From positions 768,001 to 832,000 of the forward strand of contig CAVWCF010000001.1 in assembly GCA_963753435.1 (NCBI GenBank): a DNA stretch of 64,000 nt, read 5' to 3'. Within the stretch, counting starts at the first letter, position 1; each line of letters starts with the position of its first letter. The notes below the pieces were generated by a model, which saw only the letters and a list, made by a program, of their open reading frames with translations, searched no databases and had not been told where the DNA came from. Positions 38,198 through 43,495 of the stretch are shown here, in pieces. Origin of the DNA: an uncultured Actinomycetota bacterium (GTDB taxonomy: Bacteria; Actinomycetota; Actinomycetes; CAVWCF01). The position numbers and the translations under genes were made by a program.

Positions 38198-38272
38198 GCG
38201 GGTGTAGCTCAATGGCTAGAGCCCCAGCCTTCCAAGCTGGATATGCGGGTTCGATTCCCGTCACCCGCTCCA
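38198..38272 (+). tRNA. tRNA-Gly (TCC)
   Basis: GCGGGTGTAGCTCAATGGCTAGAGCC CCAGC-CTTCCAA-GCTGG ATATGCGGGTTCGATTCCCGTCACCCGCTCCA. Confidence 0.97.
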
Positions 38273-38334
38273 CGCTCCGCTGGTTCGCCCCGAATGGCAG
38301 TCTTCGGGCATGCCTGTCCGCTCCGGAGTCCAAC

Positions 38335-39135
38335 GTGCCCGCTGATCTGGGGACTCCCGAGTTCGACCTTTCCGGCCGCGTGGCGCTGGTCAGCGGAGCG
38401 GGTGCCGCCGACGGCATCGGTATGGCGACCGCGGACCTGCTCGGCCGGATGGGCGCCGCCCTGATCATCGCCTCGACCACCGACCGGATCCAGTCCCGCG
38501 CCGAGGAGCTGCGCGCCGTCGGGATCGACGCCATTGGCGTCGCCGGTGACCTGACCGACCAGGCCGCTGCCGGAGCGCTCGTCGGCGCGGCCGTTCAGCG
38601 GCACGGTCGGCTCGACGTCGTTGTGAACAACGCCGGGATGACGTCGATCGGCGATCCGATGGACGACCGCGGCCTGCTGGAACTCGACCTGGACCGTTGG
38701 CGGCACGAGTTGTCGCGCAACCTCGACCCCTGCTTCACCGTTACCCGGGCGGCCATGCCGCAGTTGCTGTCCAACGGCTGGGGCCGGGTGGTCAACGTCG
38801 CTTCCGTCACCGGACCCTTCATGGCCATGCGCCAAGCCCCCGCGTACGCGGCCGCCAAAGCCGCGATGGTCGGCCTGACCCGGGCGTTGGCGGTCGACCA
38901 CGCCGGGGCCGGCGTCACTGTCAACGCCGTCGCCCCGGGCTGGATCGCAACCGGGTCGCAGACTCCCGAGGAAGCGGTCGAAGGAACGCTGGTCCCGATC
39001 GGCCGCTCGGCCCAACCGGCAGAGGTGGCCGCGGTGATCGGCTTTCTCTGCTCCCCCGGTGCCTCCTACGTGAGCGGTCAGGTGTTGGCAATCGACGGCG
39101 CGAACACCGTCGGCGAGGAACGCCGACCCGTCTAG
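38335..39135 (+). CDS. Short-chain dehydrogenase/reductase (FabG-like)
   Basis: ALVSGAGAADGIG, VVNNAG, YAAAK, VNAVAPGWI; start moved out of tRNA-Gly to GTG 38335 (uncertain). Confidence 0.9.
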   Translation: MPADLGTPEFDLSGRVALVSGAGAADGIGMATADLLGRMGAALIIASTTDRIQSRAEELRAVGIDAIGVAGDLTDQAAAGALVGAAVQRHGRLDVVVNNAGMTSIGDPMDDRGLLELDLDRWRHELSRNLDPCFTVTRAAMPQLLSNGWGRVVNVASVTGPFMAMRQAPAYAAAKAAMVGLTRALAVDHAGAGVTVNAVAPGWIATGSQTPEEAVEGTLVPIGRSAQPAEVAAVIGFLCSPGASYVSGQVLAIDGANTVGEERRPV

Positions 39136-39174
39136 GCCTCCGCGATCAGCCGGACCGACCAGGAACGCCCTAGG

Positions 39175-39700
39175 TCAAAGGCGGCGGTGCAGGACCAGTA
39201 GGTCGGCGTACGTGCCGTCCGGCCGGCGGAAGCCGTCGGGCACCCGGCCGATCTCGGCGAATCCCAGGGAACTCCAGAGTCCAACCGCGCGGGTTATCGG
39301 CCACGACCGCGTTGAACTGCATGGCCAGGTAGCCCAGTTCGCCGGCGCGACTCAGGATGCGCTCGGCGAGTGCCCGACCGATGCCCTGACCGGCGGCGGT
39401 CGGGTCGACCATGAAGGCCGCGTGCGCCACATGGCTGCCCTGGCCGGGTTGATTGGGCTTCAACACCGCCGACCCGACGACGCTCCCCGCAGATTCGGCC
39501 ACCCATACTTCGGCCGGCGGCGGGAGCATCCACAAGTCACGGGCTTGCGGCTCATCGGTTTGCGGCGCCCACGTGTACGTGCTTGCAGCGGCCACGATCT
39601 TGTGCCAGAACGGCCAGATCTCCGCCCAGTCCTGGGGGATCGCCGGACGCAGAACCAACCCTTCGCCCTGAGCGCCCGCGACATCTCCGGCTGGACTCAA
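39175..39700 (-). CDS. GNAT N-acetyltransferase with apparent frameshift near 39290
   Basis: GSHVAHAAFMV, GQGIGRAL, AMQFNAVVADN; the conserved C-terminus AVGLWSSLGFAEIGRVPDGF...LHRRL* (stop 39175) is in another frame. Confidence 0.8.
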
Positions 39701-39853: not shown

Positions 39854-40411
39854 TCAGCTGACCAGCGTGGCCGGGTCCACGTCCGGCGGGATCAGCACCG
39901 CGTCGATGCCGTGGATGACGCCGTTGGACGCCTCGATGTCCGGGGCGACGACGGTCGCACCGTTGACCTGCACACCGTCGGCGGTGCTCAACGTCACCGT
40001 CTGGCCCTCAACGGTGGCGACGTCTCCGTCGGTCACCTGGTCAGAGGTCACCGCGCCGGGCACGACGTGGTAGGTGAGGATCTTCACCAAGACCGCCTGG
40101 TTCTCCGGCAGCAGTAGCGCGTCCAGGACGCCGGCAGGCAATGCGTCAAACGCGGCATTGTCCGGCGCGAATACGGTGAACGGACCGTCGCCGTTCAGAG
40201 TGTCAACCAGGCCCGCAGCCTCAATGGCGGCGACCAGGGTGGAGTAGTCCTCCGCACCGGACGCAACCTCGACGATGGTGCCGGCGTCAGTTGCCGGGGC
40301 CTCGGCGGTGGGGCTGGGGCTGCTCGCAGCGTCGTCGTCACTGTCGCTGGAACATCCGGTAAGTACCAGGCCGGCAGCGACAGCTGCCACGCCCAACAGT
40401 CGCATTCTCAT
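39854..40411 (-). CDS. Fasciclin (FAS1) domain lipoprotein, MPT83-like
   Basis: Lipobox VLTGC, STLVAAIEAAGLVDTL, FTVFAPDNAAF, ILTYHVV, NGVIHGIDAVL. Confidence 0.95.
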   Translation of the reverse strand: MRMRLLGVAAVAAGLVLTGCSSDSDDDAASSPSPTAEAPATDAGTIVEVASGAEDYSTLVAAIEAAGLVDTLNGDGPFTVFAPDNAAFDALPAGVLDALLLPENQAVLVKILTYHVVPGAVTSDQVTDGDVATVEGQTVTLSTADGVQVNGATVVAPDIEASNGVIHGIDAVLIPPDVDPATLVS

Positions 40412-40566
40412 GGTGGCTCCTTAAGAAGTCCTCCGCGGCGATCGCGGTCATTGGGTCTTTCCCCCATGGCACCGCGTTTGGATGCACCCCGATGCAAATT
40501 GCTTGGCCGCTGATTGTTCGGCCCGCCCGGGATGCGGTCTCGGTCCCGATACGGCACAGTGGTTTC

Positions 40567-41499
40567 ATGTTCAAGAACTTCTGGTACGCCGTTGAGTTCT
40601 CCAAGGTCGTCAAGCCCGCCGGGAAGCCCGTCCCGGTCAGGTGCCTTGCGCAGGACTTCTCCCTGGCGCGCCTGCCCAGCGGTCAGGTACTCGCGTGGAA
40701 CGTGGACCGTCCCGCCAACGAGTTGCTGCCCGTCACGGAGAAGTACGGCTTCGTTTGGATCTTCCTCGGCGACCCGGACTTCCCGGTCGACCAGCGGCCG
40801 CCGATCCCGGATTGGCCGGAATGGGACGACCCCGCCTTCGCCGGCCACAACGTGACCGGCGAGTGGCTCTGGAACGCCGGCGTGGAACGAATCGTGGAGA
40901 ACGGCGTTGACGTCGCCCACACGCCGTTCGTGCACGCGGGTCAGTTCGGCAACCCGAAGCGACCAGAAGTTCCCGAGTACGAGGTCATCACCACCGACTG
41001 GAGCGGCGAACTGACTGTCGCGCTGCACCCGCCTGCGCCCAAGGGTGTCTTCTCCGTGGTCAGCAAGCGCGGCGATCTGGACAACCGTCCGCCAGTGGTC
41101 ACGAGCACCGCTTGGTTCCTACCCAACCTGATTCGGTTGAAGGTGCGACTGCCCTTCGGTGAGTTGTGCCTTTACGACACCAACATCCCGATCGACAAGA
41201 CGACGACCCTCACCAAGTTCGTCTCGCTGCGTTCCTTCTTCACCGGCAAGTGGGCCGACCGGGATGCGTTGCGGCGCGTCTACCCGATCTTCAAGAGCGA
41301 TGCCGCGGTGGTCGAGGCGCAGCGACCAGAACTCCTGCCGTTCGACCTTTCGGCGGAGTTGCACGTTCGTTCCGACCGCATGGCCATCAGCTACCGCAAA
41401 CGGCGGCAGGAACTCCTTGAGGCCGGCTGGGGACACGCGGACACCGACCGCTACCTGGGGTCGACCTTGGCGCTGGAGGCGGCAGACTCCGTGGCATGA
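40567..41499 (+). CDS. Rieske non-heme iron oxygenase family protein (PAO/VanA-like catalytic domain) lacking the Rieske [2Fe-2S] motif
   Basis: N-terminal KNFWYAV and PVTEKYGFVWIFLGD frame the Rieske fold, but no CxH or CxxH is present; mononuclear Fe motif ENGVDVAHTPFVH and distal D (FKSDAAVVEAQ) are intact. Confidence 0.8.
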   Translation: MFKNFWYAVEFSKVVKPAGKPVPVRCLAQDFSLARLPSGQVLAWNVDRPANELLPVTEKYGFVWIFLGDPDFPVDQRPPIPDWPEWDDPAFAGHNVTGEWLWNAGVERIVENGVDVAHTPFVHAGQFGNPKRPEVPEYEVITTDWSGELTVALHPPAPKGVFSVVSKRGDLDNRPPVVTSTAWFLPNLIRLKVRLPFGELCLYDTNIPIDKTTTLTKFVSLRSFFTGKWADRDALRRVYPIFKSDAAVVEAQRPELLPFDLSAELHVRSDRMAISYRKRRQELLEAGWGHADTDRYLGSTLALEAADSVA

Positions 41500-42215
41500 C
41501 GGAGTCGCCGGTGGTTACCGGCTCACTGCTCTTCGAGCTCGCTGACCGGTTGCGGGATCGGCTGGTCGGCAGGGTTAACGGACAGGCCAGCCCGGAAGGC
41601 TTCGCGCTGCACCTGGCCGACGGCACGACTATCGGGTCCGTCGAAGTGTGGCGCTCTGATCAGGTCCGGATAGCCGTAGAGGTCCGATTGGCCGACCCGG
41701 TGCGCGGCCTAGCGGCGTCCATGCTGCACGCGTTCTCGCCGCGGTCGTCACAGTCGCCGCATCTCGTGTGCGACATGGCGCTGCTCGGCCACAAACTCGC
41801 TGTCGGCGCGGACTTGGTACCGCGAACCGACCCGGCCGACACCCCAGAGTGGGCAACACAGGTCTGGGGACCATTGCTGCCCGCCCACGAGCTCTACCTG
41901 GCCACCCCGGGGGTGCGCACGACCACGGATGTAAGCGCGCGGTTGCGATGGCTGTGTTCGCCGTGGCTGATAACCACTTCCCAAGGCTTCGAAAACACCG
42001 ACGCCGCCGAGCGCATTCTGGAAGCTCTCATCGACCGATTCGCCGAGCTCAGTGGGCCCCCCGGGCCTTCCGCCGATGCCCTGTGGGCGGACCGCGATCG
42101 TCGCTACCTGGCGGCACTGTTCGCCGAAGAAACCGACCCTGTTTGGGAAGTCATGTCCGAACTGATCGGAGAGCCCACCCGCGACCGCCTGGTCTCGCTC
42201 ATGGTCGACGGCTGA
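41496..42215 (+). CDS. Red chlorophyll catabolite reductase / ferredoxin-dependent bilin reductase-like protein
   Basis: SMLHAFS...PHLVCD...DLVPRTD...SPWL...RDRRY...F..ETDPVW...LIGE pattern recalled from bacterial RCCR-like proteins; ATGA overlap with the upstream oxygenase gene. Confidence 0.6.
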   Translation: MTESPVVTGSLLFELADRLRDRLVGRVNGQASPEGFALHLADGTTIGSVEVWRSDQVRIAVEVRLADPVRGLAASMLHAFSPRSSQSPHLVCDMALLGHKLAVGADLVPRTDPADTPEWATQVWGPLLPAHELYLATPGVRTTTDVSARLRWLCSPWLITTSQGFENTDAAERILEALIDRFAELSGPPGPSADALWADRDRRYLAALFAEETDPVWEVMSELIGEPTRDRLVSLMVDG

Positions 42216-42268: not shown

Positions 42269-43495
42269 ATGAGCCCCGTTCTGCGTGCAGCAACGGCCGC
42301 GGACCTGCCGGCCATCCGGTCAGTTGACGAGTTCGCGTTCGGCACCGAGATCCCCGACAGTGTTTGGACGGCGTGGACCGAGGCGTTCCCGGTTGCCAGG
42401 GCATACGTTGCCGAGTCGGACGGCACCATCGTCGGCCAGACCGCGTCGCACCGGTTCCAGATGTCCGTCCCCGGCGGCTGGGTCCCCACGGCCGGTGTCA
42501 CTTTCGTGGCAGTGCATCCGCTGCACCGACGCCAAGGCTTGTTGCGCGCCCTGATGACGCGCCAGCTGACCGAACTAGCCGCTGCGGGAGAGCCGATCGC
42601 ACTGCTCTGGGCCTCCGAGCCCGCCATCTACGGCCGCTACGGCTTCGGGCCGGCGGCTGAGCACCTTGACCTCACGGTGCCGGCGGACCCGGCCGCGCTG
42701 CCGGTCCTGCCTGGGGAGGAGTCCCTCCGGGTGGACACCCCGGCACCAACGCAGGCCCGATCCGCCGCCGAGGCCGTCCTGAAGCGAGTGGCCGCCCAAA
42801 GAGCTGGCGTGCTGTCGACCGACGCCGACGCCTGGCCGCTGCGGGTCTTGGACGCCCCCGAACGGCGTGGTGGCTCCGGGAGATTGCGGGCCGCGGTCGT
42901 CTCCGACGGCAGCGGCCAACCCGTTGCCTACGCCCTGTTCGCGCCGACGCAGAGTTGGGACCACGGCCAAGCCGACGGCTCGGTCGCGATCCGCGAGTTC
43001 GCTGCCGTCGACGCGGTCGCCCGGAGTCGGCTGTGGCGGTTCCTGATGTCCCTGGACCTGATGGCCCGGCTGCACTGGGAGTACGCGCCCGCCGACGAGC
43101 CACTACCGCTCATGACGCACGCGTCCCGGCAGATCGTCACGGGTCGTCGCGACAGCATCTGGGTCCGGGTGCTGGACGTCGAAGCGGCGCTACTAGCACG
43201 CACCTACGCGACGGCGCTCGACGTGGTCCTGGAGGTCCACGACGGCCTGATGGCGGACTGCGCCGGACGCTGGCGGCTCACCACCGACGGCGCAACGGCG
43301 ACCTGTGCCCGAACCGAGGACCCCCCGGACCTGAGCATGTCGGTGGCGGCCCTGGGTTCGGCCTACCTCGGCGGCCAGGCATTCGCGAGGCTGGCCGAGG
43401 CCGGGTTGGTCACCGAGCAGACGCCGGGGGCACTGGCGGCAGCCACCACTGCCTTCGGTTCGACTCTGCAGCCATGGTGCCCATTCGTCTTCTGA
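42269..43495 (+). CDS. Eis-like GNAT acetyltransferase with SCP2-like C-terminus
   Basis: VTFVAVHPLHRRQGLLRALM, LWASEPAIYGRYGFG, WVRVLDVEAALLARTY, LGSAYLGG, PWCPFVF. Confidence 0.92.
   Translation: MSPVLRAATAADLPAIRSVDEFAFGTEIPDSVWTAWTEAFPVARAYVAESDGTIVGQTASHRFQMSVPGGWVPTAGVTFVAVHPLHRRQGLLRALMTRQLTELAAAGEPIALLWASEPAIYGRYGFGPAAEHLDLTVPADPAALPVLPGEESLRVDTPAPTQARSAAEAVLKRVAAQRAGVLSTDADAWPLRVLDAPERRGGSGRLRAAVVSDGSGQPVAYALFAPTQSWDHGQADGSVAIREFAAVDAVARSRLWRFLMSLDLMARLHWEYAPADEPLPLMTHASRQIVTGRRDSIWVRVLDVEAALLARTYATALDVVLEVHDGLMADCAGRWRLTTDGATATCARTEDPPDLSMSVAALGSAYLGGQAFARLAEAGLVTEQTPGALAAATTAFGSTLQPWCPFVF

Follow-up and report, generated by a model that had tools for sequence, protein, structure and literature searches.

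A Rieske-less oxygenase subunit and an RCCR-like reductase encoded together in an actinobacterial genome: a candidate accessory module of tetrapyrrole catabolism

Two overlapping genes of an uncultured actinobacterium raise the question of whether a bacterium can cleave and reduce tetrapyrroles with a compact two-gene unit. The preliminary description of the locus had read the pair as a PAO-like Rieske oxygenase followed by an RCCR-like reductase. Our analysis indicates that the pair is real, under selection and unusual; it is not a PAO, and it is not self-contained. In a literature search that covered mainly open-access journals, no paper was found on this operon, or tying genes to the consumption of chlorophyll and its breakdown products by bacteria. 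RCCR-related bacterial sequences served as outgroup in the accessible part of one study (PMC10151467), and the accessible part of another deals with plant RCCR only (PMC9306834). For oxygenases without a cluster, the precedents found in that search were NdmC/NdmD, the cross-subunit Asp bridge and the two-chain CAO.

The gene pair and its surroundings

The window, i.e. the whole stretch of DNA that was analysed, comprises 64,000 nucleotides (G000:C1:768001-832000) of a genome of 2.17 Mb that is 98% complete. Both open reading frames of the preliminary description were recovered, coupled by an ATGA overlap at 41496-41499, and the motifs quoted for gene 1 (ENGVDVAHTPFVH and FKSDAAVVEAQ) and for gene 2 (PHLVCD, DLVPRTD, SPW, RDRRY and DPVW) are present. 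The following features were considered:

39854..40411, minus strand: divergent gene for a fasciclin-domain lipoprotein, a neighbour only (Pfam, E 1.9e-37)
40531..40566, plus strand: predicted leaderless promoter, consisting of GATGCG (40531-40536), 18 nt, CACAGT (40555-40560), 6 nt and ATG (conservation)
40567..41499, plus strand: gene 1 (protein P0001, 310 aa), VanA_C-type non-heme iron oxygenase subunit without Rieske cluster (Pfam, alignment with intact homologues, dN/dS)
40693..40716, plus strand: approximate site of an in-frame deletion of about 47 residues, gene 1 residues 43-50 (alignments, bridging contigs, same deletion in P0006-P0014)
41496..42215, plus strand: gene 2 (protein P0002, 239 aa), putative divergent member of the RCCR/ferredoxin-dependent bilin reductase family (family profiles against PDB, Atlas, column counts, dN/dS)
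42269..43495, plus strand: Eis-type GNAT acetyltransferase gene, 3' of gene 2 (Pfam)
G000:C1:1555000-1586000 (L028, L029), strand not given, outside the window: core catabolic cluster of about 30 kb (gene content)

The pair had been credited with a leaderless-type promoter of its own, and this prediction agrees with the conservation seen in relatives. CACAGT stands 6 nt before the ATG, and the layout GATGCG-N18-xAxxxT-N6-start recurred in 8/8 aligned upstream regions. GATGC was located 36 nt 5' of the start in 9/9 distinct upstream regions of homologues with the same deletion as gene 1 (the deletion clade, see below), versus 0/35 for intact homologues, 4 of these 35 listed regions being incomplete. 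The strict pattern occurs twice in the whole genome. A generic sigma-70 scan gave no sites, so that the predicted promoter rests on conservation; the generic promoter/terminator scan stayed at chance level. A short direct repeat, GATGC-N5-GATGC, lies at 40481-40496 between gene 1 and the fasciclin gene; it has 13 sites in the genome and was not seen in more distant relatives.

The Eis-type gene also follows gene 2 in five close relatives (L041, L042, L121, L123 and L124). It was not found near the three other deletion-clade genes or in the core operon, and it is probably not part of the module. The gene lists of L041 and L123 show no fasciclin gene on the upstream side. Farther upstream, an SDR gene right behind a tRNA-Gly (38209-39015) and a GNAT-like ORF with an apparently frameshifted C-terminus (39170-39700) form a stretch unlike that of relatives at the same locus. 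A search against Rfam returned tRNAs only, plus a sub-threshold overlap on one of them. Near-identical DNA was detected in metagenomes from sediment, freshwater sediment, runoff and soil (8 runs, share at least 0.21). Four estuary metatranscriptomes contained short near-identical contigs of both genes; as these runs had been picked via this very stretch, and as the shares were small and possibly stem from DNA, they were not counted as evidence of expression or habitat.

An oxygenase subunit that has lost its Rieske ligands

The catalytic domain of gene 1 matched VanA_C (PF19112) with E 1.2e-21 and 78.2 bits (cut-off 23.5), and no Rieske-family or PaO-family entry of Pfam was matched. Alignment with intact homologues revealed a feature that had escaped the first reading: a clean gap of about 47 residues, in which the CxH and CxxH motifs, and thus both pairs of ligands of the Rieske [2Fe-2S] cluster, are gone and the flanking strands are kept. 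Without these motifs, the protein is unable to work alone in the usual Rieske way. The 2-His-1-carboxylate iron site (His/His/Asp) and the bridging Asp D115 are retained.

The PAO identity was rejected. None of 26 family members matched PaO (PF08417), all being of the VanA_C type, and a PaO search of the genome gave no match, its control being positive in 2/14. The likeness to PAO is restricted to the gene logic, a Rieske-family oxygenase upstream of an RCCR-like reductase; the difference lies in the VanA_C catalytic domain without PaO domain and, for gene 1, in the missing cluster. The closest solved relatives of the family are GxtA/SxtT, NdmA/B and DdmC, with saxitoxin precursors, xanthines and dicamba as respective substrates. 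One homologue of gene 1 was named from Candidatus Nanopelagicales.

Among the best 120 of 387 matches of gene 1, 15 homologues lack the ligand motifs: nine carry the same deletion (P0006-P0014, 58-95% identity), five are N-terminally incomplete and one has another gap. N112, D115, H118, H123 and D245 are invariant in 11/11 deletion-clade sequences. The clade formed one branch on the columns of the catalytic domain alone (support 90/99 in a tree without three unaligned rows; 98 in a second tree without P0014). Gene 1 is under purifying selection, with a dN/dS of 0.05 against both L121 (310 codons) and L122 (222 codons), compared with 0.13 for the neighbouring Eis gene. Contigs of runs X1 and X3 span the deletion site free of gaps, X1 possibly being the source sample of the window itself. 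With the intact enzymes, the clade shares 65 conserved positions; 19 others are replaced, including Y106 and W162, and a conserved C-terminal tail motif was found in 0/12 deletion-clade sequences versus 24/25 intact ones. The replaced positions and the lost tail could represent losses of interface.

Ligand-less copies with other lesions occur as well. In L138 (354-1697), L145, L147 and L140 (3011-4129), the ligands were lost or degenerated by substitution, not by deletion. In L138, the ligand-less copy is followed by a hydrolase gene and then by an intact paralogue, all in one operon, so that the intact copy lies two genes downstream. A separate origin of the ligand-less genes of L138 and L140 is not established (p-AU 0.285). 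Seeming second Rieske-less copies in family f9 turned out to be intact on closer look. The f9 genomes (L035, L034 and L246-L250) measure 1.0-2.5 Mb. The oxygenase is present in up to three intact copies per genome and RCCR-like genes number four to six, a gene content which suggests that these small genomes invest strongly in the pathway. Three alphaproteobacterial members of the oxygenase family (L095, L113 and L119) have no RCCR-like neighbour within 10 kb.

Two known systems resemble gene 1 in part. NdmC of the caffeine N7-demethylase NdmCDE (Pseudomonas putida CBB5) is likewise an iron oxygenase without Rieske cluster that is fed by the cluster of another protein, and the sequence of gene 1 displays the corresponding traits of a kept iron site, an absent cluster and selection. 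Unlike NdmC, gene 1 does not adjoin an NdmD-like Rieske-reductase gene or a GST gene, its candidate donor being a full-length paralogue 750 kb away; moreover, the base of the Rieske domain is still present in P0001, the loss being confined to the ligand segment. The chlorophyllide a oxygenase (CAO) of Micromonas pusilla is a chlorin Rieske oxygenase whose functions are split over two polypeptides, according to the part of PMC9615114 available. In our case, both metal sites are retained in the intact paralogue and the split would therefore be one-sided, unlike that of the Micromonas enzyme; the predicted role is catabolic.

A divergent relative of linear-tetrapyrrole reductases

As a single sequence, P0002 gave no match in Pfam (E up to 1), NCBIfam or PDB and had only three close homologues; a profile was therefore needed. 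The search of 61 genomes yielded matches in five, including two paralogues in the genome of the window itself. A profile of 13 rows matched HY2 and RCCR in PDB (E 1.5e-5 to 5e-5) and retrieved 370 representatives at E up to 0.001. A second profile of 99 rows, built from full-length matches among the best 150, reached Arabidopsis RCCR with E 7e-14 and tomato HY2 with E 2e-7 in PDB. All non-chance PDB matches of the family were linear-tetrapyrrole reductases. Atlas placed RCCR/FDBR on top (0.96, 231 shared features), a recognition below its threshold and weak when taken alone, and its 30 matches for gene 2 comprised RCCR/FDBR sets only. PF06405 (RCC_reductase) was not matched by P0002 at E up to 1, and an orthologue scored 18.8 bits, below the cut-off of 24.9. 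The Pfam comparison with RCC_reductase and Fe_bilin_red that had been proposed for gene 2 thus yielded nothing for the single sequence; the family profile matched the RCCR and HY2 structures.

Acidic residues that act as proton donors, one on the sheet and one on the distal helix, mark the RCCR/FDBR superfamily, and P0002 has D93 and D214 at these places. The column of D93 contains Asp or Glu in 91/99 profile rows, that of D214 is acidic in 85/99, and both residues are invariant in the 16/16 rows of the P0002 subfamily. D93 aligns with the RCCR glutamate E154. D214 aligns with Asp263 of tomato HY2, which the available part of PMC11879140 names as proton donor; the position of HY2 Asp123 is a Met in P0002. 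The 16-row subfamily stands apart with support of 100/99 and has H78 in 15/16 rows. In the branch of P0002 itself, Leu replaces the Arg after the RD motif that is kept in 86/99 rows, and Gly replaces a His kept in 56/99. The pocket contains H78, with H104 and R205 replaced, which points to a substrate that may differ from that of the core reductase. Gene 2 showed a dN/dS of 0.08-0.13. Profile matches and the two kept acidic residues support the membership of gene 2 in the RCCR/FDBR superfamily as a divergent member, and to this extent its earlier reading as an RCCR/FDBR-type protein appears sound.

Compared with plant RCCR/ACD2 (PF06405; PDB 2zxk, 3aga), the best PDB match of the gene 2 profile (model positions 33-243), the gene also resembles its counterpart in being encoded beside a Rieske-family oxygenase; it differs in that P0002 alone misses PF06405, belongs to the separate H78 subfamily and has lost the conserved Arg. 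The FDBRs (HY2 6kmd, PebA 2x9o; PF05996) are approached through the match to tomato HY2 and the equivalence of D214 and Asp263, and are set apart by the Met at the Asp123 position and by the lower score of HY2 relative to RCCR. A heme oxygenase gene was not seen in the flanks of gene 2 that were examined. RCCR-like domains of the gene 2 family also occur in the protists Diphylleia rotans (P0129; two such domains together with an NAD-binding one) and Rigifila ramosa (P0238; with ankyrin and FYVE domains). Diphylleia feeds on algae.

The core cluster and the place of the gene pair

The genome contains one other member of the gene 1 family, an intact enzyme encoded at C1:1567957-1569222 with an RCCR-like gene immediately behind it. 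It is part of the core cluster, which encodes this Rieske oxygenase, two RCCR-like proteins (RCCR-A and RCCR-B), an alpha/beta hydrolase, an unclassified beta protein, an SDR, two Amdase-family proteins, a nitrilase-like protein, an HMG-CoA-lyase-like protein, a CoA transferase, aldehyde dehydrogenases, a flavin reductase, an ABC transporter and a regulator, which we take to be of the IclR type. Downstream genes include those for an isochorismatase, a methylisocitrate-lyase-like protein, an FAD monooxygenase and a maleate-isomerase-like protein of the Amdase family. Enzymes of this kind suit the conversion of maleimides; a set of nitrilase, Amdase, isochorismatase, lyase and FAD monooxygenase also fits pyridine-type catabolism. 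RCCR-B of this genome passes PF06405 with 46.8 bits (cut-off 24.9). The beta protein shows a likeness to DUF3598/BFA1 that is no more than a lead (score 0.87), and the SDR presumably resembles chlorophyll b reductase, a name absent among 120 matches and lacking PDB support. A related hydrolase matched chlorophyllase weakly (E 0.015); a search for Mg-dechelatase gave 0 matches, its control being silent too. The lumichrome pathway of Nocardioides was set aside as identity of the cluster, as that operon is P450-led and comprises 25 genes (PMC12746152, in whose accessible part PAO appears just in a reference).

Among the best 80 of 375 genome loci, an RCCR-like gene neighbours the oxygenase in 73, and 4 of the 75 intact loci among them are without such a neighbour. 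Each gene of the core operon occurs in 65-71 of these 75 intact loci (RCCR-A 70, RCCR-B 69, hydrolase 69, beta protein 70, SDR 71, Amdase 68) in one gene order, which is kept across many actinomycete genera. Cultured strains of Nocardioides, Actinoplanes, Catellatospora, Micromonospora and Streptomyces possess the operon. In a class-level sample of 401 genomes, the oxygenase family occurred in 16 and RCCR-like genes in 17, all 16 being shared; the 16 belong to five families and are kin, not independent cases. A phylum-level sample contained the oxygenase family in 3/401 genomes. A metagenomic protein of 642 aa (P0178) is a natural fusion of Rieske, VanA_C and FDBR-like domains. The probable true counterpart of PAO/RCCR is this intact cluster, which the same contig carries at a distance of about 750 kb from the pair.

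The pairing postulated for genes 1 and 2 is thus conserved at the level of the families; the two genes themselves are separable. They are adjacent in G000, G001, G002 and four metagenome loci (L121-L124). In three incomplete MAGs (G061-G063), the deletion gene likewise occupies the rpiB-pepN locus and gene 2 is missing, their best score with the gene 2 subfamily being 163 bits versus at least 288 for orthologues. Conversely, scores indicate a gene 2 orthologue in G010, G155 and G175, and the copy of G054 groups with these. In G010 and G054 it again stands at the tig-tRNA-pepN locus, and none of the four genomes has a deletion-type gene. The distribution fits an old pair with differential loss, and together with the missing Rieske cluster it speaks against a self-contained two-step module. 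In all six genomes with the deletion gene (6/6), there is in addition a longer paralogue with an RCCR-like gene next to it; both ligand motifs were read directly in four of them and one in G002, the copy of G063 being in frameshifted pieces. As the six genomes are kin, this co-occurrence may reflect shared ancestry. P0001 is 38% identical to its own intact paralogue, compared with 51% to an enzyme from Catellatospora; the two paralogues do not group, a grouping that was not rejected either (p-AU 0.145). An operator-like motif has eight copies in the genome, of which three belong to the core cluster; 30/123 related loci contain a related pattern. At the window pair, no exact or one-mismatch copy was present; matches had two to three mismatches and were obtained without shuffle control. 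In L043 and L056, the deletion gene is preceded by a near copy of the motif.

The reading that we tentatively prefer is that the pair forms an accessory module of a larger bacterial tetrapyrrole pathway, in which gene 1 would draw its electrons from the core paralogue and gene 2 would act as reductase on an open-chain product. In favour of it count the deletion with kept iron ligands, the selection, the homology of gene 2 to RCCR/FDBR, and the intact paralogue with its conserved operon; against it count the 38% identity to the proposed partner, the possible interface losses, the separate regulation, the separability of the genes, the kinship of the genomes and the non-PAO family of the oxygenase. 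Because of the reductase family, the presence of at least six RCCR/FDBR-like genes in a small genome and the maleimide-suited downstream enzymes, we infer a tetrapyrrole as substrate, most likely chlorophyll catabolites. In Rieske trimers, the cluster faces the iron across subunits via a conserved Asp, as described in the available part of PMC9939785, so that a mixed oligomer with the core enzyme could make the site of gene 1 (D115/H118/H123/D245) work on a second substrate or position. P0001 would then provide a second active site supplied with electrons in trans, the core paralogue being the most likely donor. Precedents are NdmC, which works without a cluster by use of that of NdmD (PMC4408171), and the CAO of Micromonas, which consists of two chains (PMC9615114). 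Gene 2 would take two electrons from ferredoxin and, with D93 and D214, reduce a methine bridge of the ring-opened tetrapyrrole. The nitrilase, the Amdase/maleate-isomerase-like proteins, the CoA transferase and the lyases of the core cluster would bring pyrrole-derived maleimides into central metabolism, and the pair would broaden the pigments or isomers accepted by the core pathway.

Several other explanations were weighed against this accessory module. The view of gene 1 as a remnant in decay, or as an artefact of assembly, hardly deserves credence: an essential cofactor motif is lost and frameshifts affect other genes in the assemblies of relatives, but the identical in-frame deletion in nine homologues of 58-95% identity (best 120 of 387 matches), a dN/dS lower than that of the Eis gene, the 65 positions common with intact enzymes and the bridging contigs speak against it. 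The original proposal, in which the two genes alone act as a PAO and RCCR unit on pheophorbide a with plain ferredoxin/FNR, is very improbable. Translational coupling, a conserved promoter, the homology of gene 2 to RCCR and the retention of the pair in three genomes and four metagenome loci agree with it; the missing Rieske ligands, the missing PaO domain and the occurrence of either gene without the other do not.

A less remote, though still unlikely, alternative keeps the tetrapyrrole pathway and replaces the partner of gene 1: a stand-alone Rieske ferredoxin or reductase would be the electron source, or the protein would act on an activated substrate without outside electrons or serve as an iron-containing binding or carrier protein. 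The low identity to its own paralogue, the loss of the tail and of Y106/W162, a separate promoter without the operator-like motif of the core cluster and the three small Rieske proteins of the genome (one in a suf operon, one stand-alone) favour such an arrangement. The bridging Asp D115, invariant in 11/11 though perhaps kept for the iron ligand alone, the longer paralogue in 6/6 genomes and the ligand-less and intact copies within one operon in L138 favour the paralogue as partner. Somewhat less probable is a fourth explanation, by which the whole gene set, the pair included, degrades an N-heterocycle or aromatic compound and the RCCR-fold proteins were recruited for another reduction. It agrees with the substrates of the nearest characterised oxygenases (saxitoxin precursors, xanthines and dicamba) and with downstream genes that also fit pyridine-type catabolism. 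It conflicts with the non-chance PDB matches of the gene 2 family, all of them linear-tetrapyrrole reductases, with the number of RCCR/FDBR-like genes in the genome (at least six), with the resemblance of the beta protein to DUF3598/BFA1, still a lead only, and with the homologues named from the protists Diphylleia and Rigifila.

Beyond the accessory module itself, it is conceivable, if doubtful, that heterotrophic soil and sediment actinobacteria mineralise chlorophyll catabolites by means of a non-PAO oxygenase, an RCCR-like set and a maleimide branch, the cluster-less subunit being, in this lineage, a swappable second active site that inserts into the oligomer of the core enzyme and comes with a matching reductase. 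The core operon sits in cultured strains, and the question of the substrate is therefore directly testable. If the proposed electron transfer holds true, the pair would be a natural case of a Rieske enzyme lending electrons to the active site of a paralogue. Electron lending in trans is so far known from a few systems, e.g. NdmCDE and algal CAO, and such a case would help to understand and engineer Rieske oxygenases.

Further loci of the genome merit mention. Two copies of the operator-like motif mark possible regulon members, one at G000:C1:1181840 near a membrane-protein gene of no assigned function and one at G000:C1:82205 between a CoA transferase gene and another regulator of the type found in the core cluster. 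At G000:C1:1302701-1304344 (L030), an NAD(P)-binding epimerase-like domain is fused to an RCCR-like domain, the two being separate adjacent genes in G010 and G054; a PNPOx/flavin-reductase-like gene comes next and ends in a weak PCP_red tail. L038 (C2:126917-127774) and L039 (C1:506530-507414) are stand-alone members of the RCCR/FDBR family. One of them passes PF06405 and lies beside glnA; the other passes Fe_bilin_red (PF05996), has a weak PCP_red tail and stands behind genes for a pyruvate:ferredoxin oxidoreductase and a DHODH-like protein. A weak third stand-alone candidate is located at C1:894716-895567.
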